Source of the DNA: Vectrevirus PDP21P6
Sequence record: OZ035822.1
DNA length: 44,789 nt
Strand: one strand, 5' to 3'
The number at the start of each line of letters is the position of its first letter. Positions within the stretch are counted from its first letter, which is position 1. The notes under the pieces were generated by a model. It was not told the origin of the DNA, searched no databases, and saw nothing but the letters and a program-made list of their open reading frames with translations. The position numbers and the translations under genes were made by a program. Of the stretch, positions 775-32,289 are shown piece by piece.

Positions 775-2659
775 AGAATCACAGGCAGAGGCATTAAAGC
801 GGTGGGAAAACCTTAAAGAACTACAAGACACTTTTAAATATACAGCGGAAGGTTTGCTTCTCTTTGCAGACACAGTTATTCATAACTTGATTGCAGGCAA
901 CCCTCATCTGATTCGTATGCAGGCTGATATCTTGAAGTTCCTATTCTACGGACACAAATATCGCCTCATCGAAGCGCCTCGTGGTATCGCTAAGACAACA
1001 CTATCAGCAATCTATACGGTATTCCGTATTATTCATGAACCGCATAAGCGTATCATGGTTGTGTCACAAAATGCTAAGCGAGCAGAGGAAATCGCAGGTT
1101 GGGTGGTGAAAATCTTTCGTGGCCTAGACTTCCTTGAGTTTATGCTGCCGGATATCTACGCAGGGGACCGTGCATCCGTTAAAGCATTTGAGATTCATTA
1201 CACCCTACGTGGTAGCGATAAGTCCCCCTCTGTATCCTGTTACTCAATCGAAGCAGGTATGCAGGGTGCTCGTGCTGATATTATTCTAGCGGATGACGTT
1301 GAATCGATGCAGAATGCTCGTACAGCAGCAGGCCGTGCATTGCTTGAGGAGTTGACCAAGGAATTTGAATCTATTAACCAATTTGGTGACATCATCTACC
1401 TTGGGACACCTCAGAACGTAAACTCTATCTACAATAACTTACCTGCTCGTGGTTACTCTGTTCGTATCTGGACTGCACGTTATCCTTCAGTGGAGCAGGA
1501 GCAATGCTATGGTGACTTCCTTGCACCTATGATTGTGCAGGATATGAAGGACAACCCCGCACTTCGCTCTGGTTATGGGTTGGACGGTAACAGTGGTGCA
1601 CCTTGCGCACCTGAAATGTACGATGATGAAGTGCTGATTGAGAAGGAAATCTCTCAGGGTGCGGCTAAGTTCCAGCTTCAGTTCATGCTTAACACTCGCA
1701 TGATGGATGCTGACAGATACCCACTTCGTCTAAACAATCTCATCTTCACTTCATTCGGTACTGAGGAAGTCCCTGTGATGCCTACGTGGAGCAACGACTC
1801 CATCAACATCATTGGAGATGCACCGAAGTATGGCAATAAACCTACAGACTTCATGTATCGACCTGTGGCTCGCCCCTATGAATGGGGTGCTGTTACCCGC
1901 AAGATTATGTATATCGACCCAGCGGGCGGCGGTAAGAATGGAGATGAAACGGGTGTAGCGATTGTCTTCCTGCACGGCACATTCATTTACGTGTATCAGT
2001 GCTTCGGCGTGCCAGGCGGATACCGCGAATCGTCCCTGAATCGCATTGTGCAGGCCGCAAAGCAGGCTGGTGTTAAAGAGGTATTCATTGAAAAGAACTT
2101 TGGTCATGGCGCGTTTGAGGCGGTAATTAAGCCTTACTTTGAACGAGAATGGCCTGTGACTCTGGAGGAGGATTACGCCACCGGACAGAAAGAGTTGCGT
2201 ATCATTGAGACGCTAGAGCCACTCATGGCGGCCCACAGGCTCATCTTTAACGCAGAGATGGTGAAATCGGACTTTGATTCGGTACAGAACTATCCGCTTG
2301 AGCTACGCATGTCCTACAGCCTTTTCAATCAAATGTCGAACATCACGATTGAGAAGAACAGCCTCCGGCACGATGACCGCTTAGACGCTCTGTATGGCGC
2401 TATACGGCAATTAACTTCTCAGATAGACTATGATGAGGTTACACGGATTAATCGCCTCAGAGCGCAGGAGATGCGCGATTACATCCATGCTATGAACACA
2501 CCTCACCTCCGTAGGGCGATGCTCTATGGAGATTATGGCACTGAGCGAAGAGTAACCAACACTTCCGTGGCTATGCAGCAAAGAGTGTACGGTCAGAATT
2601 ACAGGAGTAAATCGGCAAATCGAAATACACTTTCTGCAAGGATTTCAAGGACTTATTAA
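761..2659 (+). CDS. terminase large subunit (DNA maturase B)
   Basis: ATG 761 with AGGAG RBS 748-752; deviant Walker A PRGIAKTT and Walker B IILADDVE typical of T7 gp19-like terminases; 632 aa. Confidence 0.85.
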   Translation: MAKARESQAEALKRWENLKELQDTFKYTAEGLLLFADTVIHNLIAGNPHLIRMQADILKFLFYGHKYRLIEAPRGIAKTTLSAIYTVFRIIHEPHKRIMVVSQNAKRAEEIAGWVVKIFRGLDFLEFMLPDIYAGDRASVKAFEIHYTLRGSDKSPSVSCYSIEAGMQGARADIILADDVESMQNARTAAGRALLEELTKEFESINQFGDIIYLGTPQNVNSIYNNLPARGYSVRIWTARYPSVEQEQCYGDFLAPMIVQDMKDNPALRSGYGLDGNSGAPCAPEMYDDEVLIEKEISQGAAKFQLQFMLNTRMMDADRYPLRLNNLIFTSFGTEEVPVMPTWSNDSINIIGDAPKYGNKPTDFMYRPVARPYEWGAVTRKIMYIDPAGGGKNGDETGVAIVFLHGTFIYVYQCFGVPGGYRESSLNRIVQAAKQAGVKEVFIEKNFGHGAFEAVIKPYFEREWPVTLEEDYATGQKELRIIETLEPLMAAHRLIFNAEMVKSDFDSVQNYPLELRMSYSLFNQMSNITIEKNSLRHDDRLDALYGAIRQLTSQIDYDEVTRINRLRAQEMRDYIHAMNTPHLRRAMLYGDYGTERRVTNTSVAMQQRVYGQNYRSKSANRNTLSARISRTY

Positions 2660-2680
2660 TTACTGGACACTATAGAAGGA
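2658..2680 (+). promoter_or_regulatory. phage RNAP promoter
   Basis: AATTACTGGACACTATAGAAGGA, +1 G at 2675, directly after terL stop. Confidence 0.7.
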
Positions 2681-2751
2681 AGGCCCAGATAATAAGAGAA
2701 ATAACAAGGATAATATAGGTTAACCTAGGTTATATAGGTATGCCTTAGTAT

Positions 2752-2771
2752 GGGTGTACTCCTGTACACCC
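2752..2771 (+). promoter_or_regulatory. leader stem-loop (possible RNase III site or mRNA-stabilising hairpin)
   Basis: perfect inverted repeat GGGTGTAC-tcct-GTACACCC in the 5' UTR downstream of the 2658 promoter. Confidence 0.4.
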
Positions 2772-4332: not shown

Positions 4333-4355
4333 ATTTACTGGACACTATAGAAGAG
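4333..4355 (+). promoter_or_regulatory. phage RNAP promoter
   Basis: ATTTACTGGACACTATAGAAGAG, +1 G at 4350, upstream of tailspike 1. Confidence 0.7.
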
Positions 4356-4434
4356 ATAAGATAGTGCCGTTCTTTTGAGCGGCCTATTACTAGCCAATCT
4401 TCATGGTGAGGGTTGGGAAGTAATAGGAGATAAA

Positions 4435-6342
4435 ATGGCTAAATTAACCAAACCTAATACTGAAGGAATCTTGCATAAGGAAGACTCTTTGTATGAGTAC
4501 CTTGATGCGAGAGAGAGTATAGTTTTAACATCAAAGCCGTTTGGTGCAGTAGGTGATGCTACTACTGATGATACGGAGGTTATAGCTGCTTCACTAAACT
4601 CTCAAAAAGCTGTCACAGTCTCAGACGGTGTATTCTCTAGCTCTGGTATTAATAGTAATTACTGTAACTTAGACGGTAGAGGTAGCGGGGTGCTAAGTCA
4701 CCGTTCCAGTACAGGTAACTACTTAGTATTTAACAATCTACGTGCAGGTCGCTTAAGTAATATTACGGTAGAGAGTAATAAGGCGACTGATGATACTCAG
4801 GGGCAGCAGGTATCTCTTGCTGGTGGCAGTGATGTTACTGTAAGTGACGTTAACTTCTCAAACGTTAAAGGTACTGGTTTCAGTTTAATAGCATACCCTA
4901 ATGGTGCGCAACCTAATGGGCTTATGATTAAAGGCATTCGAGGTAGCTACTCTGGCTATGCTACTAATAAGGCTGCTGGATGCGTACTTGCTGACTCCTC
5001 AGTTAACTCTCTCATAGATAACGTCATTGCTAAGAGCTATCCTCAGTTCGGAGCTGTAGAGCTGAAAGGTACAGCCAGTTATAACATAGTAAGTAATGTT
5101 ATAGGGGCAGATTGCCAGCATGTAACTTACAACGGCACTGAAGGGCCAATAGCTCCTTCTAATAACCTTATCAAGGGGGTGATGGCTAATAACCCTAAGT
5201 ATGCAGCGGTTGTTGCAGGAAAAGGAAGTACGAACTTAATCTCAGACGTGCTCGTAGATTACTCAACTTCTGATGCTAGGCAGGCTCATGGTGTTACCGT
5301 AGAAGGATCTGATAACGTCATAAATAATGTGCTTATGTCAGGATGTGATGGTACTAACTCTTTAGGACAAGGGCAGACTGCTACAATTGCACGCTTTATA
5401 GGTACAGCTAATAACAACTATGCGTCTGTATTTCCTAGCTACAGTGCTACAGGTGTTATTACCTTCGAACCCGGCTCTACCCGTAACTTCGTAGAGGTAA
5501 AGCACCCTGGCAGGAGAAACGACCTTCTCAGTTCTGCTAGTACTATTGACGGTGCAGCTACTATTGACGGCACTAGTAATAGTAACGTAGTGCACGCACC
5601 TGCATTAGGACAGTACATAGGTAGTATGTCAGGTAGGTTCGAATGGCGGATTAAGTCCATGTCACTCCCTTCAGGCGTTCTTACTTCTGCTGATAAGTAC
5701 AGAATGCTTGGAGATGGTGCTGTGTCATTAGCTGTAGGTGGGGGCACTTCTTCTCAAGTTCGCCTATTTACTTCTGATGGTACTTCTCGGACAGTGTCCC
5801 TCACCAACGGTAACGTGCGTCTTTCTACCAGTAGCACAGGCTTTTTGCAGTTAGGCGCTGATGCAATGACCCCAGACAGTACTGGTACATACGCATTAGG
5901 TTCCGCCAGCCGAGCATGGTCTGGCGGTTTTACTCAAGCAGCATTCACTGTTACCTCAGATGCTCGGTGTAAAACAGAACCTCTTACTATCTCAGATGCC
6001 TTACTGGATGCTTGGTCTGAAGTTGACTTTGTGCAGTTTCAGTATTTGGATCGTGTTGAGGAGAAGGGTGCAGACTCAGCTAGATGGCACTTCGGTATCA
6101 TCGCTCAGCGAGCTAAGGAGGCTTTCGAACGTCACGGTATAGATGCACATCGCTATGGCTTCTTGTGCTTCGACAGTTGGGATGATGTATACGAGGAAGA
6201 TGCCGATGGCTCTCGTAAACTGATTACACCAGCAGGTTCCCGCTACGGTATTCGTTACGAGGAAGTGCTGATATTAGAGGCTGCGTTGATGCGGAGGACT
6301 ATTAAGCGTATGCAGGAAGCACTAGCTTCCCTGCCTAAGTAA
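4435..6342 (+). CDS. tailspike 1 (beta-helix depolymerase-like) with C-terminal intramolecular chaperone domain
   Basis: ATG 4435 with AGGAGA RBS; N-terminal GAVGDATTDDT pectate-lyase-like signature; C-terminal SDARCK...HFGIIAQRAKEAF segment resembles peptidase S74 autocleaving chaperone. Confidence 0.8.
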   Translation: MAKLTKPNTEGILHKEDSLYEYLDARESIVLTSKPFGAVGDATTDDTEVIAASLNSQKAVTVSDGVFSSSGINSNYCNLDGRGSGVLSHRSSTGNYLVFNNLRAGRLSNITVESNKATDDTQGQQVSLAGGSDVTVSDVNFSNVKGTGFSLIAYPNGAQPNGLMIKGIRGSYSGYATNKAAGCVLADSSVNSLIDNVIAKSYPQFGAVELKGTASYNIVSNVIGADCQHVTYNGTEGPIAPSNNLIKGVMANNPKYAAVVAGKGSTNLISDVLVDYSTSDARQAHGVTVEGSDNVINNVLMSGCDGTNSLGQGQTATIARFIGTANNNYASVFPSYSATGVITFEPGSTRNFVEVKHPGRRNDLLSSASTIDGAATIDGTSNSNVVHAPALGQYIGSMSGRFEWRIKSMSLPSGVLTSADKYRMLGDGAVSLAVGGGTSSQVRLFTSDGTSRTVSLTNGNVRLSTSSTGFLQLGADAMTPDSTGTYALGSASRAWSGGFTQAAFTVTSDARCKTEPLTISDALLDAWSEVDFVQFQYLDRVEEKGADSARWHFGIIAQRAKEAFERHGIDAHRYGFLCFDSWDDVYEEDADGSRKLITPAGSRYGIRYEEVLILEAALMRRTIKRMQEALASLPK

Positions 6343-6349
6343 GCAACAG

Positions 6350-6372
6350 GCAGTGCGTAAGCACTGCTTTTC
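6350..6372 (+). terminator. intrinsic terminator-like hairpin
   Basis: GCAGTGC-gtaa-GCACTGC followed by TTTTCACGCAACTTTTCTT. Confidence 0.55.
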
Positions 6373-6427
6373 ACGCAACTTTTCTTAAAGGTTATCATGG
6401 TGGTAGCCTTTCAGAAAAGGAGGTTAC

Positions 6428-8224
6428 ATGCTTCAAAGATTAAGCACTGCCTTGGTGCGGTATAAAAGTAAAATGTCAGGTGCAATAGGTCGTATATTGC
6501 AAGAAAGACTAGAAGATACGTTAAATGCAAAAGACTTTGGTGCAAAATGTAATGGAGTGGATGATGATACAATCCCTCTCAACAATGCAGCAACAGCAGC
6601 ACGCCTTAAAGGAGTCAAACTCGTAATAACAGGGTCTTGCCTAACAACTGACACAGTTAACTTTAGAGAGGTACTGCTAGAGGCATCAAGTGCTACATTT
6701 ATTATTAAACACGAGGGTGTTGGTGTTATCTTGGGTGGTAATGCAAGTGTGCACAATAACCCCAAGCAAGAGTTTGGTATGACAGAAAGACTTGTTGGGT
6801 CTGCATCTCTAGACACCCCTGATGTACGTATAATGGGTGCCAAGTGCCAACACATTAGCATAGAGAAGTCTGATTACCTTCAGCTATATGCAGATTCAGA
6901 TGAATCAGTATATGAAAAGGACTACTCTATCGCGTATTCCACTTTTACCTTAAAGTATGTTAAAACAATCAACATACGCGGGATTAATCGTGGTTGGATT
7001 AATGAGAACCAGTTCTTCTTAAATAGAACACATTTTGTGACAATACAAGATGGCAATTACTCTCATAACCACAATAAATTCTTTGGTGGCACTATGGAAG
7101 AGAAAGGTGCTATAGATATACAGAGAGGTCATAATAATCACTTCTTTGGGCTTCGATTCGAAAGAGATGGCTCTAAGCCAGATAGAACACTAGACATCAA
7201 GTTTGGTTCTTATACATGGAATAATTCAATTGAAGCATCGTGGCTTAGCTCTGCTGCATATAGCAACGAACCATATAACCCAAATAATCTTGTCACTGTT
7301 ACAGATTTAGGTAGAGGTAATGCTGTACGCCATATACAAGAAGATTTAACAGATGAGATCCCTTTGCTTTCACTAAGTGGAAAGGCAGACTACATCTCTA
7401 GTACCAACCTAGGTACTGTAAGCCAACCTGTTGTTATAACTAACTTCCCTAATATATATAATATTAGACACCTAGTATCAAGCAAGTTTTCTGTTGTAAG
7501 AAATTTCTACCCTATATGGGAGTCTGGTAATTTAGAGGTAAGGAATGGAGACTTATTCACATTCTGCTCTGATGTACCTATCTTCCGTATGCGTCTATTT
7601 ATATTAGATGCGCAAGGTAATGTAATCACTGAGCAATTAGATGATGATGTATCATTCCCTGGTAGTTCTTGGAATGCACAATTAAGTATGTATACAAATA
7701 CTACCAATATTGATGTTGCTAAAATACGTGTCACTAATAGTTCTCGTATTAAATACATTCGTCTTGTCTTGATGTCTGGTGGTTCATCTCAAGATAGAGT
7801 CTTTGAATATGCAAGAGTGACTGCAAGATACTATAAGTATTCAAGCTCAACACCTCGTAAGAATATGGATGTTGCCTTAACCTCTTGCTCTGCTATTATG
7901 CCTTATAAGGGCGATGCAGAGATGCAATATATTGGTTACGGTCTGCCTGTTGTTAAGATGGAAGATACGACTAAGAAGGTTAATATAACACGTAATAGGT
8001 ATTCTGTTATTAATGTGTCTGGTTCTTCTATTAAGGTAAGGGTTTCAGGTAGTCTTATATCCGCAGACTCTAACGACTTACATCTTGTATATACAGAGGG
8101 TTCCGCTAATAAAATTATACCTATTCAGTCTTTATCGGATGATACTATTACTTTAACTTCTACTGCACCTACTACTATAGTAGCTAATAGCATGGTAGAT
8201 GTAGTTTGTACAAAGCAGGTGTGA
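6428..8224 (+). CDS. tailspike 2 (beta-helix depolymerase-like)
   Basis: ATG 6428 with AGGAGG RBS; N-terminal DFGAKCNGVDDDT pectate-lyase-like signature; 598 aa; no adaptor domain. Confidence 0.75.
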   Translation: MLQRLSTALVRYKSKMSGAIGRILQERLEDTLNAKDFGAKCNGVDDDTIPLNNAATAARLKGVKLVITGSCLTTDTVNFREVLLEASSATFIIKHEGVGVILGGNASVHNNPKQEFGMTERLVGSASLDTPDVRIMGAKCQHISIEKSDYLQLYADSDESVYEKDYSIAYSTFTLKYVKTINIRGINRGWINENQFFLNRTHFVTIQDGNYSHNHNKFFGGTMEEKGAIDIQRGHNNHFFGLRFERDGSKPDRTLDIKFGSYTWNNSIEASWLSSAAYSNEPYNPNNLVTVTDLGRGNAVRHIQEDLTDEIPLLSLSGKADYISSTNLGTVSQPVVITNFPNIYNIRHLVSSKFSVVRNFYPIWESGNLEVRNGDLFTFCSDVPIFRMRLFILDAQGNVITEQLDDDVSFPGSSWNAQLSMYTNTTNIDVAKIRVTNSSRIKYIRLVLMSGGSSQDRVFEYARVTARYYKYSSSTPRKNMDVALTSCSAIMPYKGDAEMQYIGYGLPVVKMEDTTKKVNITRNRYSVINVSGSSIKVRVSGSLISADSNDLHLVYTEGSANKIIPIQSLSDDTITLTSTAPTTIVANSMVDVVCTKQV

Positions 8225-22054: not shown

Positions 22055-22063
22055 GGAGTTATA

Positions 22064-22360: not shown

Positions 22361-22381
22361 TTACTGGACACTATAGAACAA
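22359..22381 (+). promoter_or_regulatory. phage RNAP promoter
   Basis: AATTACTGGACACTATAGAACAA, +1 G at 22376; followed by leader hairpin 22383-22402 and TGATTGTGTAGTG box. Confidence 0.65.
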
Positions 22382-22437
22382 TAGGTCGGCTTAGTTCGGC
22401 CTATGATTGTGTAGTGTAACAATAGGAGACTAAATAA

Positions 22438-23244: not shown

Positions 23245-23250
23245 GGAGGG

Positions 23251-23472: not shown

Positions 23473-23473
23473 A

Positions 23474-23489
23474 GTCTCACGTGTGAGAC
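23474..23489 (+). repeat. 16-bp perfect palindrome GTCTCACGTGTGAGAC (copy 5)
   Basis: exact palindrome (CACGTG centre variant), 15 bp upstream of promoter 23505. Confidence 0.8.
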
Positions 23490-23504
23490 AACTCGGTGTC
23501 CTGT

Positions 23505-23527
23505 ATTTACTGGACACTATAGAAGAG
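23505..23527 (+). promoter_or_regulatory. phage RNAP promoter
   Basis: ATTTACTGGACACTATAGAAGAG, +1 G at 23522. Confidence 0.7.
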
Positions 23528-23577
23528 AAGAATTTTAATAGGCGATAATGCCACAACCAACAAAAGGAGAATTTAAT

Positions 23578-23949
23578 ATGTTCAAGATTGAAACTATCGT
23601 AAACCGTGTTGTTAAAGGTGCTGCTCTGGTATCCGTTGAGTCTTTCATTATCGTCGATGAAGCTGATCAACTGGTAGCTGGTACTAAGGCTTACGATACC
23701 CGTGAAGAAGCTCAGGCTAAGATTGACAGCATGGGTAACTTCGCTGCTGGTCTGGAGTTCGCTCGTGCTTGCTTCCCTGAGCAGGCTGACAAAGCTCAGA
23801 TTGGTAAGGCTAATATCGTAGCTGAATATCTGGATTGGGTTGCTGCTGGTAAACCAGTGAAAGAAGTTAAGGCTGCTGAAGAAGCTGAAGCTCCAGCAGA
23901 AGAAGTAGCTGCGCCGGAAACTCCGGTAAGCGAAGAGGAAGAGTTTTGA
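23578..23949 (+). CDS. hypothetical protein with acidic C-terminal tail
   Basis: ATG 23578 with AAGGAG RBS; 123 aa ending ...ETPVSEEEEF; own promoter and own terminator. Confidence 0.55.
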   Translation: MFKIETIVNRVVKGAALVSVESFIIVDEADQLVAGTKAYDTREEAQAKIDSMGNFAAGLEFARACFPEQADKAQIGKANIVAEYLDWVAAGKPVKEVKAAEEAEAPAEEVAAPETPVSEEEEF

Positions 23950-24007
23950 TAATAGCAGGTGTTGCCTCTGTTAGTCCTAGCTGACTATCACGCTCACCTC
24001 ATCTAAT

Positions 24008-24041
24008 GCCCTGTCTGCCTTAGTGTAGGCAGGGTCTTTTG
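24008..24041 (+). terminator. T-phi-like intrinsic terminator
   Basis: CCCTGTCTGCC-ttagtg-TAGGCAGGG 10-bp stem with two G-U pairs, then TCTTTT. Confidence 0.65.
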
Positions 24042-24066
24042 CGTAATAGTTATTGGAGAGTGAATT

Positions 24067-24357
24067 ATGCCGACTATTGAAGAACGTTTCCTGATTCACG
24101 TAAGCTTCTCGCCCATACATCTTGGTTATCTTATCACTATTCTATTAGGTGAAGAGATTTATCTGCATAACTACTTAATACCAGAGTATGTATGCCTTCG
24201 AGATAAGATACACCCTGCTAATTGGGCGAAAGAGTGGTTGCGTGAACATGTGCTGAAGGAGTGGCCTACATGCGACCAAACTTCGACTTCGGAGCTACAG
24301 TATCGGAAGACAATAATCTCATCCTGTGGCCAACTGAAGGTAATCGAATCGCTTTAA
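24067..24357 (+). CDS. hypothetical ORF overlapping exonuclease start
   Basis: 96-aa ORF with GGAGAG RBS; overlaps exonuclease by about 88 nt in another frame. Confidence 0.25.
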   Translation: MPTIEERFLIHVSFSPIHLGYLITILLGEEIYLHNYLIPEYVCLRDKIHPANWAKEWLREHVLKEWPTCDQTSTSELQYRKTIISSCGQLKVIESL

Positions 24358-25295
24358 TAGACGCTGATATGTTACCTTACATCGTCGGGTATACAATCAG
24401 TGACATGACTTATGTACGAGCTACAACTCGTGTTAAGTCAGGACAAGTCCCATCAATCAAAGATACCCCTGAGTGTAAGCAAGCGTGTGACCGTGTGAAC
24501 TCCTTGCTTAACTCTTGGGTGTATGCAGCAGAGTGTGATGCTGCTAAGTTATTCATGACGAAGTCAGAAGCTAACTTCCGTGTCCGCCTAGCATTCACCA
24601 AACCTTATAAAGGTCAACGTAAGACCGAGAAGCCTCCATTCTTCTATGAAATGCGAGAGCATCTCTTAGAGGTTCACGGTGCAATCTTGGCAGATGGTGA
24701 GGAAGCTGATGACCTCATGAGTATTGCACAATGGGACAGCCATCGCCGCTTCCAGCAAGATACAGGTAACGAGTTCCCTATCGGTAGTCCAGAGCATAGA
24801 GCATTCTCTGACACTTGCATCGTTTCCTTGGATAAGGATTTGATGATTGTTCCCGGTTGGCATCTACAGCCGGGAGGTGAGAAGAAATGGGTAGAGCCTA
24901 TGGGTTGGCTTGAGCTACGCCGCAAGGCTAATGGTCAAGTGAAAGACCTTAAAGGCGCTGGCCTCATGTTCCATTATGCACAGATGATTATCGGTGATGA
25001 TATTGATAATTACGCTGGCATACCCGGACGTGGTGCTAAATACGCCTATGATCTTCTCAAAGATTGTAAGACAGAGAAAGAGTTGTACATGGCAGTGCTT
25101 GGTGCATACAAGGCTAAGTTCGGACATGGACAAGTTAAGATTAAGAATTACCGAGGTGGTTATCGTATCGGCAAGGCTTTTGACCTGATGCTTGAATGTG
25201 GTCGCCTAGCACACATGGCAAGATTCAAGGGTGATATATGGCGAGCCGATAAGAACCCAATCTTGTGGGGAGATGAAGGATGGCTACAAAGCTAA
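24270..25295 (+). CDS. 5'-3' exonuclease (T7 gp6-like)
   Basis: ATG 24270 with AAGGAG RBS; acidic metal-binding motifs ALIDADMLPYIVGY and ILADGEEADDLMSIA. Confidence 0.85.
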   Translation: MRPNFDFGATVSEDNNLILWPTEGNRIALIDADMLPYIVGYTISDMTYVRATTRVKSGQVPSIKDTPECKQACDRVNSLLNSWVYAAECDAAKLFMTKSEANFRVRLAFTKPYKGQRKTEKPPFFYEMREHLLEVHGAILADGEEADDLMSIAQWDSHRRFQQDTGNEFPIGSPEHRAFSDTCIVSLDKDLMIVPGWHLQPGGEKKWVEPMGWLELRRKANGQVKDLKGAGLMFHYAQMIIGDDIDNYAGIPGRGAKYAYDLLKDCKTEKELYMAVLGAYKAKFGHGQVKIKNYRGGYRIGKAFDLMLECGRLAHMARFKGDIWRADKNPILWGDEGWLQS

Positions 25296-25684
25296 AATCT
25301 TCTGAAGTTGCTGCCTATAAGAAAGAATTGCTAGAGAAGCAGGGTTGGAAGTGCCCTATTTGTGGAGCACCGCTTAAGGCAGTAGCTGAGATTAACCGAG
25401 TGTTAGACCATTGTCATCGCAGAGGTTATTGCAGGGCAGTACTCTGTCGTGGATGCAATGGTGGTATCGGGAAGATAGAAAACTTAGTAAAGACTTATTG
25501 TAAGGCTGGAGATAATGAGTACTTCATTATCAAGACACTGCGGAATATCGCAGATTATCTAGACTTACATAGTAAGCCTCAGACTGATAAGATTTATCAC
25601 AAACATCAAACGGAGGCAGAGAAGCGCGAGGCTAAGAACCGTAAGGCACGCCTTGCTTATGCAAGAAAGAAAACAGGAGGTTAA
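25280..25684 (+). CDS. endonuclease VII-like Holliday junction resolvase
   Basis: CPICG...LDHCH...CRGCNG Cys/His arrangement as in the T4 endonuclease VII family; 134 aa. Confidence 0.55.
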   Translation: MATKLKSSEVAAYKKELLEKQGWKCPICGAPLKAVAEINRVLDHCHRRGYCRAVLCRGCNGGIGKIENLVKTYCKAGDNEYFIIKTLRNIADYLDLHSKPQTDKIYHKHQTEAEKREAKNRKARLAYARKKTGG

Positions 25685-25685
25685 C

Positions 25686-26126
25686 GTGGCTTGCATAGAT
25701 CACGGACATTATAAATGTCTGAATAAACTAGGATATTACCGCTCATGGCACAAGCCTAGTAAGAAGTTACAACTGCTTCATAGAGTGGTCTATGCTGAGC
25801 ATCATGGGTTATCTCTTGAAGCAATAGAAGGTCTAGTGGTCAGACATACTTGTGACAATGCAAGATGTATTAATCCACAGCATCTTATAATTGGTACGCA
25901 GCAGGATAACATACAGGATATGGTAAAAAGAAACCGTCATGCACGTATGATAGGAGATACTAATCCTAGGGCTGTACTTACGTGGGATGTAGTGCGAGAT
26001 ATTCGTGCCAATTATATTAAGGGTGCAAAATCTGGCCCATATTCACGTACAGTCTTGGCAGAGAAGTATGGTGTCTCTGCTGCCACTATTAGTGATATTA
26101 TAGCTGGAAGGAGTTGGAAAGAATAA
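25686..26126 (+). CDS. HNH homing endonuclease (second copy, different subfamily)
   Basis: GTG 25686 with AGGAGG RBS; motif HRVVYAEHHG...VRHTCDNARCINPQHLIIGTQQDN plus C-terminal HTH-like segment. Confidence 0.75.
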   Translation: MACIDHGHYKCLNKLGYYRSWHKPSKKLQLLHRVVYAEHHGLSLEAIEGLVVRHTCDNARCINPQHLIIGTQQDNIQDMVKRNRHARMIGDTNPRAVLTWDVVRDIRANYIKGAKSGPYSRTVLAEKYGVSAATISDIIAGRSWKE

Positions 26127-27133
26127 TGGGTAAGATTCGAAACTTGTTTACTAATAAGGAGGTAGAAGAAGCAGTTGAAAGTGCAAAGCGGGACAACGGC
26201 ACTATCAACTATCGCCTAATGGCGTCTATTCTCTCAGATAACACGCATGGAACTACAGTTACAAGACAACTTGCAAAGTATTGGGCCAAACAGTTTGAAA
26301 AGCGGAAGAAGAATGGCGAGGCTTATGAAACCTTGGCTATTGCGAACCGCGCTATCAAAGAAGAACGTAAGCTCAGGACTCCTGACCGCTACGAGGATTT
26401 GGCTATTGTACCATTGCCTGACTCGCCTCATCGAAGTGTACTGGTAATACCTGACACCCATGCACCTTATGAGCATCCAGATACATTAGAGTTTCTGGCA
26501 GCGGTGGCAGCACGTTACCGTCCAGACACTGTAGTTCATCTTGGTGATGAGGCGGACAAGCACGCACTTTCATTCCATACGTCAGATCCTAATCTGGATT
26601 CTGCTGGTATGGAGTTAGAGAAGGCTCGTATCTTCATGCGTAAATTACATAAGATGTTCCCTGTAATGCGCATCTGCCACTCTAATCATGGCTCCTTACA
26701 TTTCCGTAAGGCCAGTGCTCATGGCATCCCTGTGCAATACTTGCGCACCTACCGTGAAGTCTTCTTCCCGCAGGGAGGTGGCGACCAGTGGGACTGGCAG
26801 CATACGCATGTCCTTGAGTTACCTAATGGAGAACAGGTGGCATTCAAGCATCAACCTGCTGGTTCTGTCCTAGCAGATGCAGCACACGAGCGTATGAACC
26901 TTGTGTGTGGTCATTTGCATGGTAAGATGTCTGTTGAGTATGCACGTAATACACATGAACAGTATTGGGCTGTGCAAGGTGGCTGTCTGATTGATGAGTC
27001 ATCTCGTGCATTTGCCTATGGTCGTGAGTCTAAATACAAGCCAGCATTAGGTTGTGTGGTCATTCTGGAAGGTGTGCCTCATATTGTCCCGATGCAAACC
27101 AATAGCAACAATCGCTGGATTGGTAAGATTTAG
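26126..27133 (+). CDS. calcineurin-like metallophosphoesterase
   Basis: motifs VIPDTHAPY, GDEADKH, SNHG, GHLHG; ATG overlaps upstream stop. Confidence 0.75.
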   Translation: MGKIRNLFTNKEVEEAVESAKRDNGTINYRLMASILSDNTHGTTVTRQLAKYWAKQFEKRKKNGEAYETLAIANRAIKEERKLRTPDRYEDLAIVPLPDSPHRSVLVIPDTHAPYEHPDTLEFLAAVAARYRPDTVVHLGDEADKHALSFHTSDPNLDSAGMELEKARIFMRKLHKMFPVMRICHSNHGSLHFRKASAHGIPVQYLRTYREVFFPQGGGDQWDWQHTHVLELPNGEQVAFKHQPAGSVLADAAHERMNLVCGHLHGKMSVEYARNTHEQYWAVQGGCLIDESSRAFAYGRESKYKPALGCVVILEGVPHIVPMQTNSNNRWIGKI

Positions 27134-27150
27134 TTGACACTATAGAACAA
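27128..27150 (+). promoter_or_regulatory. phage RNAP promoter (variant, closer to SP6 consensus)
   Basis: ATTTAGTTGACACTATAGAACAA, +1 G at 27145; followed by hairpin 27151-27172 and TGATTGTGTAGTG box. Confidence 0.5.
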
Positions 27151-27201
27151 AGGGCAGGTACTAGCTTGCCCTTGATTGTGTAGTGAATGGAGGAATTAAT
27201 T

Positions 27202-27672
27202 ATGTCAAAGATTGATATTGGCGAATACGTCGTACGCCGTGCAGCTTACCGAGATGCCAACTGGAATAAACTGTGTGAAAGCTTAAACAAGAAACCAGAT
27301 GAGGTATTCAAAGTATCCCGTGCAGAACCTAATTATAACTCTATCATGTTAGAAGGTGTGGAGAAGCGCGAATGGTATGCACCTTACTTCAAGGTTGTTG
27401 ACTCATTGCAAGGTGAAGATCCTGACACGTTGGACAACAATATGGTTACTAAACCCAAACACTACGAGTTCTTCGATGGCGTAGAAGCAATCACTATCAT
27501 TGCCCGCAGCATGACTGAGAAGCAATTCGCTGGGTACTGCATGGGTAATGCTTTGAAGTATCGTCTGCGTGCAGGTAAGAAGTTCAATACTGAAGAAGAC
27601 CTGAAGAAAGCAGACTACTACAAAGAATTATTCCATAAGCATCGTCACGAATGTATTGATGAGGATATTTAA
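27202..27672 (+). CDS. hypothetical protein
   Basis: ATG 27202 with GGAGGA RBS; 156 aa; conserved-looking segment GYCMGNALKYRLRAGKK. Confidence 0.5.
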   Translation: MSKIDIGEYVVRRAAYRDANWNKLCESLNKKPDEVFKVSRAEPNYNSIMLEGVEKREWYAPYFKVVDSLQGEDPDTLDNNMVTKPKHYEFFDGVEAITIIARSMTEKQFAGYCMGNALKYRLRAGKKFNTEEDLKKADYYKELFHKHRHECIDEDI

Positions 27673-27673
27673 T

Positions 27674-27847
27674 ATGGAAGGTAAGTTGTATAGAGGTTAC
27701 TTTGGTAACTTATATAAGATAAGTGCTCGCGGTTTTGTATTAGTATCTTATGATGAAGGTGCAATGTGGCACTTAAGTTCCTATGGTTCTGACTTAGCAT
27801 TCTTTAAAGATGCAATATACTCTGGTGCTGTGAGGGTAGTGGAATGA
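27674..27847 (+). CDS. hypothetical protein
   Basis: 57-aa ORF with GAGGAT RBS, stop overlaps ligase start. Confidence 0.4.
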   Translation: MEGKLYRGYFGNLYKISARGFVLVSYDEGAMWHLSSYGSDLAFFKDAIYSGAVRVVE

Positions 27848-28791
27848 ACATCTTCCAATTTCTAGGTCTTCCAGAAGAACACCGCAATCACCCGTTCATG
27901 CTGGTGAAACATCGCGGTGAAGTTCCTGAGAAGAAATTAACCTTTCCATGTTATGCACAGGTGAAACGAGATGGAATATTCAGTGCTGTTGTGGTGCGTA
28001 ATGATGGTGTTGTTGCCATCTTTGGTCGTACTGGTAAGAAGCTCGCAAATGTTGAAGCCTTGGAAAAGACATTTAGTGTATTTCCTGTCGGGTTGTATCT
28101 TGGTGAGTTGCAATCTATGGCTGTTGATGTTTATCTTGAAGCTCTGTCAGGAGTGGTAAACCCTAATCGTACAGAGCCACTTGACTTCATAGGCCAGCAG
28201 ATTAAAGACAACCTGTATATCGACTTCTTCGATATGTTAACTATTAAGGCATTCCATGATGGATTCACTGATGTTTCTTATCTCAAACGTTACGATGCTT
28301 TACATCGTCGCATCGGCGCTCATCTTAGCGGGTACAACGCTATCCTTCCTATTACTCCTTGCCATAATGAGCGAGAAGTTGAAGCGTTTGCGCAAGAGCA
28401 GATAGACGCAGGCCGAGAGGGTGCTGTATTCAAACTGGACTGCGATTATGAAGCAGGCCACAAAGGTTATCGTCAGACTAAAGAAGTCCGTAAGGTAACT
28501 TATGACCTTACTTGTATTGGCTTTGAAGAAGGTAAAGGTAAGTACAAAGGTAAGGTAGCTAACCTCATTTTCAAATGGAAAGGAGGCAAGACAATCAAAG
28601 CTATGTTAGGTAAAGGGTGGACTCATGCAGATGCAGAACAGATGTTCCACGACATTAAACATGGTGGACGATTGAATGTCATTGGTAAAATCTTTGAAGT
28701 CAAAGGTCTTCAGGATTCAAGCAAGGGCAACATTCGTCTGCCCAAAGCGGGAGAATTAAGACATGACAAAGATGAACCAGATTTCTTTTGA
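27844..28791 (+). CDS. ATP-dependent DNA ligase
   Basis: adenylation motif I KRDG in CYAQVKRDGIFSAVV; 315 aa. Confidence 0.85.
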   Translation: MNIFQFLGLPEEHRNHPFMLVKHRGEVPEKKLTFPCYAQVKRDGIFSAVVVRNDGVVAIFGRTGKKLANVEALEKTFSVFPVGLYLGELQSMAVDVYLEALSGVVNPNRTEPLDFIGQQIKDNLYIDFFDMLTIKAFHDGFTDVSYLKRYDALHRRIGAHLSGYNAILPITPCHNEREVEAFAQEQIDAGREGAVFKLDCDYEAGHKGYRQTKEVRKVTYDLTCIGFEEGKGKYKGKVANLIFKWKGGKTIKAMLGKGWTHADAEQMFHDIKHGGRLNVIGKIFEVKGLQDSSKGNIRLPKAGELRHDKDEPDFF

Positions 28792-28978
28792 TAGCATGAA
28801 GGCAACTCGTGCAGTTGAGGTAGCAGAAGCTATCTTTGAAACTTTATCCTGTGGCATGGAAGTGCCATATACTTTACTTGCTGATGCAGAAGAACTTGGT
28901 CTTTCTGTAGAAGCTATCCAAGAGAAGGTTGACGAATTATATGGTACAGACGAAGAAGAAACCGACGATTTCATTTGA
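28763..28978 (+). CDS. hypothetical acidic protein
   Basis: 71-aa acidic ORF with GGGAG RBS; overlaps ligase 3' end. Confidence 0.35.
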   Translation: MTKMNQISFDSMKATRAVEVAEAIFETLSCGMEVPYTLLADAEELGLSVEAIQEKVDELYGTDEEETDDFI

Positions 28979-28988
28979 AGGAATGGAG

Positions 28989-29111
28989 ATGCTTGAGATG
29001 ATTCTCAAGCCTTCTTCTCCGAAGGTGACTAAGACTCATGAAGAGTTAATCGTTGATGAAGTGAAGCGTTACATCATGGATTGTGTCAGAGCACAACTGG
29101 TGGTCCAATGA
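28989..29111 (+). CDS. hypothetical small protein
   Basis: 40-aa ORF with AAGGA RBS; stop overlaps GNAT start. Confidence 0.25.
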   Translation: MLEMILKPSSPKVTKTHEELIVDEVKRYIMDCVRAQLVVQ

Positions 29112-29569
29112 TACGTCCAGCTTCCTTCCTAGATATTCCTGAGATTATAAACCTTGGGAATAAATATGTGGAAGAGGAAGTCAAGGTTGTAGCCCACCAC
29201 TCAGCCTCATGGAATGCAGAACAAAGTGCACATAACCTTTGTGCATCTCTTAGTAGAGAAGATTTATTCCTATGGGTTGCTGTAGATGAAGGGCAGATTG
29301 TAGGGTTCCTGTGGGCTGGCTATCACGAGTTGGCCCCTTGGACACCTGTAAGAGTTGCCTCTGACATTCTCTTTTATATTATACCAGAGAGGCGAGGAAC
29401 ACTTCTTGGTATGCGTCTCATCAAAGCCCTAAAGCAATGGGCTAGTGATAATGAATGCTCTGAGGTTCGCCTGTCTATCGCCTCTGGTATTAATGAAGAA
29501 CGTGTCGGACGTATGTATAAGCGACTTGGCTTTGAACCGTTTGGCACTGTGTATAACATGAAGTTCTAA
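29108..29569 (+). CDS. GNAT-family N-acetyltransferase
   Basis: acetyl-CoA binding motifs RRGTLLGMRLIKAL and ERVGRMYKRLGFEP; 153 aa. Confidence 0.7.
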   Translation: MIRPASFLDIPEIINLGNKYVEEEVKVVAHHSASWNAEQSAHNLCASLSREDLFLWVAVDEGQIVGFLWAGYHELAPWTPVRVASDILFYIIPERRGTLLGMRLIKALKQWASDNECSEVRLSIASGINEERVGRMYKRLGFEPFGTVYNMKF

Positions 29570-29578
29570 GGAGATAAC

Positions 29579-29788
29579 ATGGGTGTTGTAAAGAAAGCAT
29601 TTAAGGCTATCGGTCTTGCTCAAGATGCACCACGTATTGAAGCCAAAGTACCAGCACAGCAGCTTGAGCGTAAGCCCGAGACTGAAGCTGAAGATATTCA
29701 GATTGGTGCAGGAGATGATGATGCGACTGCATCTGCAAAAGGTAAGCGCGGCCTTGTCCGTCCGGTAGCTTCTAGCTTGAAGGTGTAA
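29579..29788 (+). CDS. hypothetical protein upstream of portal
   Basis: 69-aa ORF with AAGGAG RBS. Confidence 0.45.
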   Translation: MGVVKKAFKAIGLAQDAPRIEAKVPAQQLERKPETEAEDIQIGAGDDDATASAKGKRGLVRPVASSLKV

Positions 29789-29789
29789 T

Positions 29790-31340
29790 ATGAAACAGAG
29801 CACAGATTTGGAGTACGGAGGTAAGCGGTCTAAGATACCTAAGCTATGGGAGAAGTTCTCCACTAAACGTAGCTCTTTCCTTGATAGGGCGAAGCATTAC
29901 TCCAAATTAACCTTGCCCTATCTGATGAATGACAAAGGTGATAACGAGACTTCGCAGAATGGATGGCAAGGTGTAGGTGCTCAGGCAACTAATCATCTAG
30001 CCAACAAGCTAGCGCAAGTACTATTCCCTGCACAGCGTTCCTTCTTCCGTGTAGACTTAACTGCACAAGGTGAGAAGGTTCTTAATCAGCGTGGCCTGAA
30101 GAAGACAGAGCTAGCTACCATCTTCGCTCAAGTGGAAACACGGGCAATGAAAGAGTTAGAGCAACGTCAATTCCGGCCTGCTGTAGTGGAAGCATTCAAG
30201 CATCTTATTGTTGCTGGTAGCTGTATGCTATACAAGCCGAGCAAAGGTGCAATCAGTGCTATCCCAATGCATCACTATGTAGTTAACCGTGATACCAATG
30301 GCGACCTGTTAGACATTATCTTACTGCAAGAGAAAGCCTTACGCACCTTTGACCCAGCTACACGTGCTGTAGTAGAGGTTGGCCTGAAAGGTAAGAAGTG
30401 CAAGGAAGATGACAGCGTTAAGCTGTACACACATGCTAAGTATCTTGGTGATGGATTTTGGGAACTCAAGCAATCTGCTGATGATATCCCTGTGGGTAAG
30501 GTGAGTAAAATCAAATCAGAAAAGCTACCTTTCATCCCATTAACTTGGAAGCGAAGCTATGGTGAGGATTGGGGTCGCCCTCTTGCAGAGGATTACTCCG
30601 GTGATTTATTCGTTATCCAATTCTTATCTGAAGCGGTTGCCCGTGGTGCTGCGCTGATGGCAGATATCAAGTACCTGATTCGTCCGGGTGCTCAAACTGA
30701 TGTTGACCACTTTGTTAACTCTGGCACTGGTGAGGTTGTCACTGGTGTAGAAGAAGACATCCATATTGTACAGTTAGGTAAGTATGCAGACCTCACACCT
30801 ATTAGCGCGGTTCTAGAGGTATACACTCGCCGTATCGGTGTTGTCTTCATGATGGAGACAATGACACGCCGTGACGCCGAACGTGTTACTGCTGTAGAAA
30901 TCCAGCGAGATGCGTTAGAGATTGAGCAGAACATGGGTGGTGTATACTCCCTCTTTGCTACTACTATGCAATCGCCAGTAGCGATGTGGGGTCTGCTGGA
31001 GGCAGGGGAGTCCTTCACTAGTGACTTAGTGGACCCTGTGATTATCACAGGTATTGAAGCTTTAGGGCGCATGGCTGAGTTGGATAAACTGGCTAACTTT
31101 GCTCAGTATATGTCACTGCCATTACAATGGCCTGAGCCTGTCCTAGCTGCTGTGAAATGGCCTGACTATATGGATTGGGTGCGTGGTCAAATCTCTGCTG
31201 AACTGCCGTTCCTTAAATCGGCTAAAGAGATGGCACAAGAACAGGAGGCACAGGTGCAAGCACAGCAAGCACAGATGCTTGAAGAAGGTGTGGCTAAGGC
31301 CGTGCCGGGTGTAATTCAACAAGAACTTAAGGAGGCGTAA
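29790..31340 (+). CDS. head-to-tail connector (portal) protein
   Basis: 516 aa; N-terminal region NGWQGVGAQATNHLANKLAQVLFP resembles T7 gp8; precedes scaffold and capsid. Confidence 0.9.
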   Translation: MKQSTDLEYGGKRSKIPKLWEKFSTKRSSFLDRAKHYSKLTLPYLMNDKGDNETSQNGWQGVGAQATNHLANKLAQVLFPAQRSFFRVDLTAQGEKVLNQRGLKKTELATIFAQVETRAMKELEQRQFRPAVVEAFKHLIVAGSCMLYKPSKGAISAIPMHHYVVNRDTNGDLLDIILLQEKALRTFDPATRAVVEVGLKGKKCKEDDSVKLYTHAKYLGDGFWELKQSADDIPVGKVSKIKSEKLPFIPLTWKRSYGEDWGRPLAEDYSGDLFVIQFLSEAVARGAALMADIKYLIRPGAQTDVDHFVNSGTGEVVTGVEEDIHIVQLGKYADLTPISAVLEVYTRRIGVVFMMETMTRRDAERVTAVEIQRDALEIEQNMGGVYSLFATTMQSPVAMWGLLEAGESFTSDLVDPVIITGIEALGRMAELDKLANFAQYMSLPLQWPEPVLAAVKWPDYMDWVRGQISAELPFLKSAKEMAQEQEAQVQAQQAQMLEEGVAKAVPGVIQQELKEA

Positions 31341-32260
31341 TGTCTTTCTCATTTACTGAACCGTCAACCACTCACCCTACTGCTGAAGAGGGTCCGGTAG
31401 AAACCAAGGAGGTAACAACTGATGCTGCTACTACTGATGCTCCTGCTGACGCTGGCACTGCTGTACAAGATGACAATGCTGGTGCACAACCTACTGAAGA
31501 CACCGGAGGAGAAGCTTCTGGACAGCCTTCAGAAAAAGGAGACAATGGCGGAGAGAATGGTGAACCTAAGCCAGATGATACCGCGACCGACACTGAGGAA
31601 GTGCAATACTTCTTCGGAGAACATGAAGTAACAGTAGACATCCCACAGGATGTAACTGACAGCCTTAAAGAGAAAGGCATTGATGCCAAGCAGGTTGCCA
31701 AGGAACTCTATTCCAAAGGTGGCAAGTTTGAACTGTCAGATGCAACCAAGCAGAAATTGTATGATGCTTTTGGCAAGTTTGCGGTAGATGCTTACCTGTC
31801 AGGTCTTAAGGCTCAAAATGAAGCCTTCTTCCTGAAAGAAGCCAACGCAGCTAAAGAGTTGGAAGCAGCTAACACCCAACGCTTCTCTGATGTTTCTAAG
31901 GAAATTGGTGGCGAAGAAGGTTGGTCCCGTCTTGAGGAGTGGGCGCTTGAAACTCTATCCGATGACGAACTCACGGCATTCAATGCGGTGATGGAGTCTG
32001 GCAACCAGTACCTCCAGCAGTACGCTGTGCGTGAACTGGAGAGCCGCCGTAAGGCTGCACAGGGTGATGACAAACCAAACCTGATTGAACCCTCTGCACC
32101 TGCTGCTGCATCTGAAGATAATGGCCCACTCTCTCGTGAGCAGTACCTGCGTGAGATGATGACTCTTAGCTCTCGCTTCGGTACAGACAAGAAAGCTGCT
32201 GCTGAGTATCAGGCTAAACTGGATGCTCGCCGTCGTGCTGGTATGGCTCGCGGTCTGTAA
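31340..32260 (+). CDS. capsid assembly scaffolding protein
   Basis: 306-aa acidic protein between portal and capsid genes (T7 gp9 position). Confidence 0.75.
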   Translation: MSFSFTEPSTTHPTAEEGPVETKEVTTDAATTDAPADAGTAVQDDNAGAQPTEDTGGEASGQPSEKGDNGGENGEPKPDDTATDTEEVQYFFGEHEVTVDIPQDVTDSLKEKGIDAKQVAKELYSKGGKFELSDATKQKLYDAFGKFAVDAYLSGLKAQNEAFFLKEANAAKELEAANTQRFSDVSKEIGGEEGWSRLEEWALETLSDDELTAFNAVMESGNQYLQQYAVRELESRRKAAQGDDKPNLIEPSAPAAASEDNGPLSREQYLREMMTLSSRFGTDKKAAAEYQAKLDARRRAGMARGL

Positions 32261-32266
32261 TCAGTA

Positions 32267-32289
32267 TTTACTGGACACTATAGAAGGGA
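32267..32289 (+). promoter_or_regulatory. phage RNAP promoter for capsid gene
   Basis: ATTTACTGGACACTATAGAAGGG, +1 G at 32283. Confidence 0.75.

Follow-up and report, generated by a model that had tools for sequence, protein, structure and literature searches.

Does the single-subunit RNA polymerase (RNAP) of a K1E-like phage read promoters of a specificity other than that of SP6, and is that specificity exclusive? The question is raised by a repeated element in Vectrevirus PDP21P6 (OZ035822.1), which combines an SP6-like core with a different upstream segment. The window, i.e. the whole stretch of 44,789 nt that was analysed and to which all coordinates refer, is a circularly permuted genome of a K1E/K1-5-like coliphage of the genus Vectrevirus: its identity reaches 96% with Vectrevirus PDP21P3 and about 90% with K1E, and tblastn recovers the K1E gene order. 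Promoter positions are numbered with the G of TATAG as +1.

Thirteen co-oriented sites and their polymerase

A preliminary description made from the sequence of the window had listed twelve sites between 2658 and 32289 that share the consensus ATTTAC(T/C)GG upstream of the core. Twelve sites do start between 2658 and 32266, but the consensus fits only nine of them, the exceptions being sites 10756 (ATTTAGCTG, with A at +1), 18049 (ATTTTGCCG) and 27128 (ATTTAGTTG), and a thirteenth site (CAATACTGGACACTATAGAAGAA) lies outside this range, at position 121. In total, a looser core scan and a position weight matrix (PWM) scan yielded 13 promoter-like 23-mers, all on the + strand (Table 1). Their PWM scores range from 27.9 to 38.2 bits, whereas the next best site on either strand, at 11104 (ATTTACTTATCACTATATAAGGT), scores 12.5 bits and was left out of the promoter count. 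With up to 3 mismatches, the preliminary consensus has 11 matches, all on the + strand, against 0.00 expected from 100 shuffles; the core GACACTATAGAA, with at most 1 mismatch, has 11 matches against 0.42 expected. The core GACACTATAG belongs to a longer conserved element (−17 to +6, about 23 bp) that is repeated many times per genome, here at 13 sites. Two further core-like matches, at 22248 and 26517, lack the upstream ATTTA and score poorly; they were taken as coding-sequence matches and not as promoters. All 13 sites are co-oriented with the genes. Two of them, sites 121 and 18049, lie inside coding sequence; the others are intergenic or overlap the 3' end of the gene before them.

Table 1. 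Promoter sites and associated features of the window (all on the + strand; homologues are given by position in the phage named)
Feature	Sequence	Position	+1	Score (bits)	Context	Homologues
Promoter-like site	CAATACTGGACACTATAGAAGAA	121–143	138	30.1	Inside small-terminase gene; upstream of HNH endonuclease ORF and large-terminase gene	K1E 37182, K1-5 35488
Promoter	AATTACTGGACACTATAGAAGGA	2658–2680	2675	34.8	Over large-terminase stop, upstream of gp41	K1E 40033, SP6 37773
Consensus promoter	ATTTACTGGACACTATAGAAGAG	4333–4355	4350	38.2	Intergenic, upstream of first tailspike gene	K1E 41717, SP6 39910
Variant site	ATTTAGCTGACACTATAAGAGAA	10756–10778	10773 (A)	27.9 (leave-one-out 23.2)	Early region, end of gp4; upstream of gp5, gp6 and RNAP gene	K1E 2779, K1-5 2014
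Single-subunit RNAP gene (875 aa)		12081–14708			Enzyme expected to read these promoters
RNAP specificity loop (31 aa)		14292–14384
Terminator-like hairpin and T-run	10-bp stem, 6 GC pairs, TTTCTTTT tail	14716–14747			Directly after RNAP gene
Promoter	ATTTACCGGACACTATAGGATAG	14800–14822	14817	32.9	First of tandem pair downstream of RNAP gene	K1E 6824, SP6 6118
Promoter variant (G for C at −5)	ATTTACCGGACAGTATAGATAAG	14985–15007	15002	28.1	Second of tandem pair, upstream of gp8	K1E 7008, K1-5 6204, SP6 6287
Consensus promoter	ATTTACCGGACACTATAGAAGAG	17319–17341	17336	38.0	Within 3' end of primase/helicase gene, upstream of gp10	K1E 9342, SP6 8411
Variant promoter	ATTTTGCCGACACTATAGAAGAC	18049–18071	18066	28.1	Within gp10, upstream of gp10.5	Kept as ATTT(T/C)GCCG in K1E, in K1-5 and in seven further Ser-type loci
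Promoter	ATTTACTGGACACTATAGAAGGA	21590–21612	21607	36.6	Upstream of gp15	K1E 13925, SP6 12542 (flanks strongly conserved)
Promoter	AATTACTGGACACTATAGAACAA	22359–22381	22376	34.6	Upstream of gp16	K1E 14694, SP6 13005
Consensus promoter	ATTTACTGGACACTATAGAAGAG	23505–23527	23522	38.2	Upstream of gp18	K1E 15932, SP6 14286
Variant promoter	ATTTAGTTGACACTATAGAACAA	27128–27150	27145	32.1	Over end of gp22, upstream of gp23	K1E 19097, K1-5 17755 (both identical)
Promoter	ATTTACTGGACACTATAGAAGGG	32266–32288	32283	36.8	Intergenic, upstream of major capsid gene	K1E 24431, SP6 22413

The RNAP of the window is 98% identical to the K1E and K1-5 enzymes and 86% identical to SP6 RNAP, and it aligns end to end with T7 RNAP structures (E = 4e-113). 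Its gene is directly followed by a terminator-like hairpin that precedes the first strong phage promoters and is likely the end of the early, host-transcribed unit. Matches to TTGACA-N17-TACATT occur at 9317 and 10205, the whole sigma-70 scan of the window being not above chance (5 matches vs 10.5 expected). In the early region upstream of the RNAP gene lies one member of the family, the variant site 10756, which is probably weak; it is kept in K1E and K1-5, and its counterpart is among the candidate promoters given for the phage that encodes RNAP No. 2049 (PMC13029058).

These features suggest the following scheme, in which the host RNA polymerase would transcribe the early region and the RNAP gene and stop at hairpin 14716, while the phage enzyme would bind each 23-bp site, start RNA at the G of TATAG and transcribe rightward through the replication, structural and packaging genes. 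Recognition would follow the T7/SP6 plan, the N-terminal AT-rich loop reading ATTTA (−17 to −13) and the specificity loop reading the major groove from about −12 to −7, with the TATA segment melted. The start sites in PDP21P6 and the relative promoter strengths are inferred. C stands at −11 in the three promoters that come first after the RNAP gene and T in the later ones, a split that is conserved across the loci whose RNAP carries Ser at position 747 (Ser-type loci, see below) and that fits graded promoter strength.

Divergence from SP6 promoters at −12 to −10

The preliminary description had also stated that the −7 to +4 core matches the SP6 promoter and that ACYGG replaces the SP6 AGGTG from −12 to −8. 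The first point is borne out: the core is identical to that of SP6's own genomic promoters, from −9 to +1 as well as over the −7 to +4 stretch originally given, and conservation covers both −17 to −13 and −9 to +6. As to the second, the upstream segment does differ, but the numbering was off by one, ACYGG occupying −13 to −9. The bases that distinguish the window from SP6 (ATTTAGGTGACACTATAGAAGAG, Zindervirus) are C instead of G at −12, T or C instead of G at −11 and G instead of T (or G/A) at −10, whereas G at −9 and A at −8 are common to both. SP6 has homologous promoters before homologous genes, and in the 12 homologous window/SP6 pairs positions −12 to −10 are 17% identical, against 91% for the rest of the promoter and 51% and 41% for the two flanks (ungapped comparison). 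Relative to SP6, the whole promoter set has moved together in this triplet, from GGT to C(T/C)G.

Within the window, CTG or CCG is found at −12 to −10 in 10 of the 13 sites, and these positions are the least conserved upstream of +1 (about 1.0–1.2 bits vs 2 bits in the core). The same triplet was compared across relatives grouped by the residue at RNAP position 747, Ser or, as in SP6, Arg. Among 12 Ser-type loci, 66 of 68 sites have a pyrimidine at −11, whereas all 47 sites of 7 Arg-type loci have G there (hence a pyrimidine in 0/47 of the Arg-type sites sampled); since the two groups are two clades, these counts do not represent independent events. The full triplet, too, is strongly kept in each genus, with CTG/CCG in 52/68 Ser-type sites and GGT/GGG in 33/47 Arg-type sites. 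Positions −12 and −10 vary inside both groups, SP6 itself having ACGTG, AGGGG and AAGGG, from which natural variation alone the tolerance of SP6 at −12 to −10 is read. Position −11 is the sharpest discriminator between the two promoter groups.

An alignment of the specificity loops, proposed in the preliminary description, points to a single candidate within the loop. The window RNAP has a K1E/K1-5-type loop with Ser747 (codon 14319–14321) at the position of T7 N748; R745, K755 and S757 align with T7 R746, R756 and Q758, and at these three positions SP6 RNAP has the same residues as the window enzyme, but it has Arg and not Ser at the N748 position. S747 vs R is the sole non-conservative fixed difference from SP6-type enzymes in the loop, while 57 other residues also differ consistently between Ser-type and Arg-type enzymes. 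T7 N748 and T3 D749 read −11/−10, and the replacement of Arg by Ser747 would probably remove a contact to the G at −11. By this correlation, Ser747 is the likeliest cause of the −11 shift within the SP6/K1E pair. A simple code pairing Arg747 with G(−11) was nevertheless rejected, as it is broken by relatives whose polymerases are 69–77% identical: the Arg-bearing L021 and L028 have T at −11 (TAATA(G/C)TGGCGAGTATAG) and the Arg-bearing L017 has A. The K1E and SP6 enzymes have likewise been reported not to follow the residue–base recognition rules derived from T7 (PMC11880802).

Promoter 27128 had been singled out as closer to the SP6 form, and rightly so: its AGTTG differs from AGGTG at one base and from ACYGG at two, and at −12 and −10 it has the SP6-like bases G and T, although it retains the K1E-type T at −11. 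The SP6 homologue reads AAGTG. In the RNAP No. 2049 phage, AGGTG stands at the likely equivalent of this site, before a nucleotide kinase gene, the homology being deduced from position and from an identical GAACAA start region.

Shifted or exclusive specificity

The 13 sites are, very probably, promoters of the K1E/K1-5-like phage RNAP whose preferred sequence is shifted relative to SP6 without being fully exclusive. What is shown is that the sites exist, that they are conserved and that they covary with residue 747; in vitro activity has moreover been published for a 98%-identical enzyme, RNAP No. 2049 (859/874 residues identical to the window RNAP), which transcribes from TATTTACTGGACACTATAG (PMC13029058, 2026), and the 13 sites listed for its phage are nearly the same (PMC13029058). 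It is hardly credible that the repeats mainly serve replication initiation, recombination or packaging. In T7, the corresponding pair of promoters also serves as the primary replication origin, and the tandem pair 14800/14985 after the RNAP gene, with its purine/AT-rich spacer and flanking palindromes, does recall such a role; yet an origin function at one pair would add to promoter function and not replace it, the core is fully identical to the experimentally defined SP6 promoter, and the sites all point in the direction of the genes and stand at gene starts.

The preliminary reading of a related but non-identical specificity stands insofar as this SP6-like RNAP has promoters of its own with a different upstream consensus; what does not stand is exclusivity, because a difference in consensus alone is no proof of a different, exclusive specificity. 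A T7/T3-like situation, in which the window RNAP would reject AGGTG and SP6 RNAP would reject ACYGG, is unlikely in our view, despite several observations that speak for it: position −11 separates the two groups almost completely, all 12 homologous promoters switched together, the residue equivalent to T7 N748 has changed non-conservatively, K1E and SP6 fall into separate polymerase/promoter clusters in a 2025 paper (PMC11880802), and the lack of Y at −11 in the Arg-type genomes sampled makes its exclusion by SP6-type enzymes possible. Against it, RNAP No. 2049 is no less active on the SP6 consensus than on its own, with in vitro activities of 3.5% and about 2% of T7, respectively (PMC13029058), in one assay with low yields, with an enzyme that differs from the window RNAP by S757G in the loop and with promoters that also differed at +6. 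Equal use of SP6 and native promoters, which the preliminary description had regarded as incompatible with its proposal, is nearly reached by this enzyme. The variability of −12 and −10 inside both groups, SP6 included, points in the same direction, as does the occurrence of SP6-type promoters in Ser-type genomes: AGGTG is found in locus L008 and at two sites of the No. 2049 phage, the Ser-type genomes with either AGGTG or ACGGG being these two and L023. Ser-type enzymes still appear to use SP6-type promoters.

The near-equal use of both forms by RNAP No. 2049 and the low conservation of −12 to −10 could also be taken to mean that the triplet is functionless, the RNAP being indifferent to it and the two forms representing drift fixed by descent in each genus. 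We consider this improbable: drift is not expected to produce the same triplet at 12 separate sites, nor to keep it within a genus (52/68 and 33/47 sites) while the flanks fall to 41–51%, nor to leave an invariant G at −11 in 47/47 Arg-type sites.

If the shifted but non-exclusive preference is accepted, its origin may tentatively be sought in relaxation: the Ser747 RNAP could descend from an Arg-bearing ancestor that required G at −11, and it would prefer Y(−11) while still reading SP6-type promoters, whereas SP6-type enzymes would reject Y(−11). We hold this to be possible, but less likely than not. True SP6-type promoters in some Vectrevirus genomes were imported by recombination; one of them, L008:2709, lies at a recombination junction with SP6-like DNA and came with an essential tailspike module. 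If the relaxation model is true, such one-way compatibility would let Vectrevirus take promoter-bearing modules from SP6-like phages, as for L008:2709, and not the reverse. Note that read-through from upstream promoters, if sufficient, might make the imported AGGTG promoters unnecessary.

Relation to known systems

The site family is the already described K1E/K1-5 promoter set, and the feature is not new. K1E (AM084415) and K1-5 (AY370674), whose RNAPs are 98% identical to that of the window, have the same consensus, ATTTAC(T/C)GGACACTATAGAAG, at the same positions at homologous genes, and share the variants AGTTG, AGCTG with A at +1, T/CGCCG and CAATA...; PDP21P6 shows no substantive difference from them in its promoters, but its tailspike genes are not the same, and an HNH endonuclease ORF lies between its terminase genes. 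The GenBank records of K1E, K1-5 and SP6 carry no promoter annotations. The 13 sites listed for the No. 2049 phage have the same consensus and variant types (PMC13029058); the differences are the Gly at the position of the window Ser757 (T7 Q758) and the two true AGGTG sites, one of which is probably equivalent to promoter 27128 of the window, where the sequence is AGTTG.

The T7/T3 pair is alike in that close polymerases read promoters differing mainly at −12 to −10, with the same loop position changed; T7 and T3 are largely mutually exclusive, whereas the available data indicate cross-use for the Ser-type enzyme. As a discovery, the significance of the present set is small, the K1E/K1-5 promoter type having been published, used in the C3P3 system and catalogued apart from SP6. 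Its value is corrective: the difference from SP6 is confined to −12 to −10 and not −12 to −8, −11 separates the groups, and Ser vs Arg matches this separation. When polymerase/promoter pairs free of cross-reaction are designed, orthogonality of SP6 and K1E should not be taken for granted.

The K1E homologue of promoter 32266 is 'the K1E promoter' of expression systems: the major-capsid promoter of each phage has been used for expression, and the C3P3 system relies for expression on K1E polymerase combined with the K1E capsid promoter (PMC6412113). Finally, SP6 has no site in its small-terminase gene, where site 121 lies in the window; it has one inside gene 35 instead.

Promoter sites of the phage polymerase

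With up to three mismatches, the consensus of the preliminary description matched the window 11 times, always on the + strand (shuffles predict 0.00), and a 12-base core also gave 11 matches (0.42 expected); a looser core scan added sites 10756 and 18049 (sites are named by their start coordinates). With a weight matrix made from the sites themselves, the resulting 13 sites score 27.9–38.2 bits (20.5–37.6 bits when each is left out in turn), against 12.5 bits for the runner-up elsewhere on either strand. This top sub-threshold match (ATTTACTTATCACTATATAAGGT) immediately precedes gp6 in the early region and could be the remnant of a promoter or have arisen by chance. The scans confirmed the twelve sites initially counted, which start within 2658–32289, site 121 being the thirteenth and lying outside this range; the motif ATTTAC(T/C)GG, proposed for all twelve, describes nine and fails for 10756, 18049 and 27128.

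Every site lies just upstream of some gene start. A strong, terminator-like hairpin followed by a T-run is found 3' of the polymerase gene, at 14716, and the first consensus-type sites, the tandem pair 14800/14985, come directly after it. This arrangement of sites, hairpin and polymerase gene is the layout expected for a T7/SP6-type transcription programme.

The Vectrevirus coliphages K1E and K1-5 carry identical promoter sequences, variants included, at positions homologous to those of the window. The K1E polymerase and capsid-gene promoter have served for expression in mammalian cells (PMC6412113, 2019), and RNAP No. 2049, identical to the window enzyme at 859/874 residues, was characterised and shown to transcribe in vitro from TATTTACTGGACACTATAG... 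(PMC13029058, 2026); the 13 candidate promoters listed there for its phage match those of the window in type. The window sites are real promoters of the phage's own polymerase, of the already known K1E/K1-5 type.

Coordinates of features in the window (genes located by tblastn with K1E proteins)
Feature	Coordinates	Strand	Remarks
Promoter sites, intergenic or over last codons of preceding gene	2658, 4333, 10756, 14800, 14985, 17319, 21590, 22359, 23505, 27128, 32266	+	
Promoter sites within coding sequence	121, 18049	+	small-terminase gene (121), gp10 (18049)
Variant site	10756	+	ATTTAGCTG; A at +1
Variant site	18049	+	ATTTTGCCG
Variant site	27128	+	ATTTAGTTG
Site with G at −5	14985	+	
Sub-threshold match	11104–11126		
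Palindrome copies	9234, 14782, 14964, 15982, 17393, 18619, 23474, 40424		16 bp each
Small terminase	30–329		
HNH endonuclease ORF	within 330–760		
Large terminase	761–2659		
Tailspike genes	4375–8224		
Early region	starts ~8.7 kb		
RNA polymerase	12081–14708		
Primase/helicase	15383–17371		
DNA polymerase	18761–21271		
Major capsid gene	32337–33542		

Promoter position −11 and polymerase residue 747

K1-5 and SP6 promoters were reportedly set side by side by Scholl et al. in 2004. With +1 set at the G of TATAG, ATTTA occupies −17 to −13 and the window consensus continues with C(−12), Y(−11), G(−10), G(−9) and A(−8); the upstream segment does differ from SP6 as first described, but the numbering given there (ACYGG at −12 to −8) was shifted by one. 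SP6 genomic promoters are the same as the window's at −17 to −13 and −9 to +6, their difference from the window consensus being confined to −12, −11 and −10. When 12 homologous window/SP6 promoter pairs were compared ungapped, identity was 17% (6/36) at −12 to −10 and 91% (218/240) over the rest of the promoter, with 51% and 41% in the 30-bp flanks; therefore, the entire promoter set changed jointly at three bases while the remainder stayed fixed. The variant at 27128, the same in K1E and K1-5, is closer to the SP6 form, as had been noticed, in its bases at −12 (G) and −10 (T), whereas −11 remains T.

The window polymerase (875 residues; 98% identity to the K1E/K1-5 enzymes, 86% to SP6) aligns over its full length to the solved T7 RNAP, so that T7 R746, N748, R756 and Q758 correspond to R745, S747, K755 and S757. 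The SP6 polymerase differs at one of these four positions, with Arg instead of Ser opposite N748, and matches the window enzyme in R, K and S at the others. A scan of viral contigs yielded 26 loci with related polymerases, each including at most 10 kb of DNA on either side. Between 12 enzymes with Ser at this position (Ser-type) and seven with Arg (Arg-type), 57 columns differ consistently, and only D742E, S747R and E753D fall in the specificity loop. Ser looks like the derived state in Vectrevirus, since Arg (or Lys) persists at the residue-747 position in more distant relatives.

In counts that represent two clades rather than independent events, −11 is T or C in 66/68 sites of the 12 Ser-type loci (C at −12 in 55, G at −10 in 53) and G in all 47 sites of the seven Arg-type loci (G at −12 in 39; T, G, A and C at −10 in 27, 13, 6 and 1). 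The groups overlap at −12 and −10, SP6 itself having ACGTG, AGGGG and AAGGG; the clean discriminator is −11. In a grouping of polymerases based on T7 residue positions 748, 756 and 758, K1E and SP6 form separate polymerase/promoter clusters, and their enzymes are reported to depart from the residue–base rules derived for T7-like enzymes (PMC11880802, 2025). For the promoter shift between the close relatives SP6 and K1E, the obvious candidate cause is S747R.

Relatives with 69–77% identical polymerases have promoters that differ from the window's, and L021/L028 and L017 have Arg at the 747 position, yet T and A, respectively, at −11. Each of these viral-contig loci (polymerases 69–85% identical) has its own consensus: ATTTGTGTTGCACTATAG in L014 (IMGVR_UViG_3300045988_000861), with Phe at the K755 (T7 R756) position, AATTAGAGACCACTATAG in L017, AATAAGGGGCTACTATAG in L018, AATTAGGGCGGACTATAG in L019 and TAATA(G/C)TGGCGAGTATAG in L021/L028. 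They form a compact natural series for polymerase–promoter co-evolution in the SP6 group.

Cross-use of SP6-type promoters

The upstream recognition segment differs from that of SP6, but the strong form of the distinct specificity initially proposed is unsupported by the data on RNAP No. 2049. In these low-yield assays, with an enzyme carrying Gly at residue 757 (Ser in the window enzyme) and two test promoters also unlike at +6, the SP6 consensus promoter yielded 3.5% of the signal of T7 and the enzyme's own consensus ~2%, and changes at +2 and +5 shifted the signal (up to 10.6%) more than the −12 to −10 difference; the genome of the No. 2049 phage has two AGGTG sites (PMC13029058). One site in L023 reads ACGGG, and the Ser-type locus L008 has ATTTAGGTGACACTATAGAAGAG ahead of its tailspike module. 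Since the DNA upstream of this L008 promoter is Vectrevirus-like (86–90% identity) and the promoter with the following 118 bp is 94–95% identical to the SP6-like loci L015 and L016, it arrived together with the tailspike module by recombination. No T or C at −11 was found among the 47 Arg-type sites (7 loci). The No. 2049 data, the AGGTG and ACGGG sites in Ser-type genomes and this Arg-type pattern point to a Ser-type enzyme whose preference has shifted with cross-use of SP6-type promoters retained, SP6-type enzymes possibly being stricter.

Genome layout and a second repeat family

The first 25 kb of the window match Vectrevirus genomes (PDP21P3, 96% identity over 90% of the length; K1E and many K1-capsule coliphages, ~90%), and the K1E gene order is present, circularly permuted. 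Relative to K1-5, ~430 bp are extra between the terminase genes and code for a free-standing HNH endonuclease ORF (motif ...NHKDGDKHNNDVSNLEW...); 17 phage records contain it unchanged or nearly so, and its annotation in phage VEc3 is HNH endonuclease. In K1E, by contrast, an endonuclease gene interrupts the large-terminase gene. The tailspike genes (4375–6342 and 6428–8224) resemble the K1E endosialidase weakly (33–41% identity, short terminal segments) and lack a counterpart of its catalytic region; the target of the phage is probably a capsule or O-antigen other than K1.

The −11 base is C (ACCGG) in the three promoters right after the polymerase gene (14800, 14985 and 17319) and T (ACTGG) in the other consensus-type promoters compared (121, 2658, 4333 and 21590–32266). 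Ser-type loci for the most part keep this split, although the K1E homologue of 2658 reads ACCGG; such conservation suggests promoter classes differing in timing or strength. Region 14716–15032, with its terminator-like hairpin and two promoters 185 bp apart, each with a palindrome upstream, and a purine- and AT-rich spacer between them, resembles by position the T7 phi1.1A/1.1B region, the primary replication origin of T7.

The palindrome, perfect and of sequence GTCTCAC(A/G)TGTGAGAC, occurs in eight mostly intergenic copies (up to two mismatches; 0.01 expected), three of them 2–15 bp upstream of the promoters at 14800, 14985 and 23505. Exact copies are limited to Ser-type (Vectrevirus) loci; at the equivalent places, a different, GTCCAAC..GTTGGAC-like palindrome occurs in SP6 and in relatives further removed, so this element has likewise changed from one genus to another. 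Its candidate roles are an RNA hairpin (acting in processing, pausing or 3'-end stabilisation) and a site bound by a dimeric protein.
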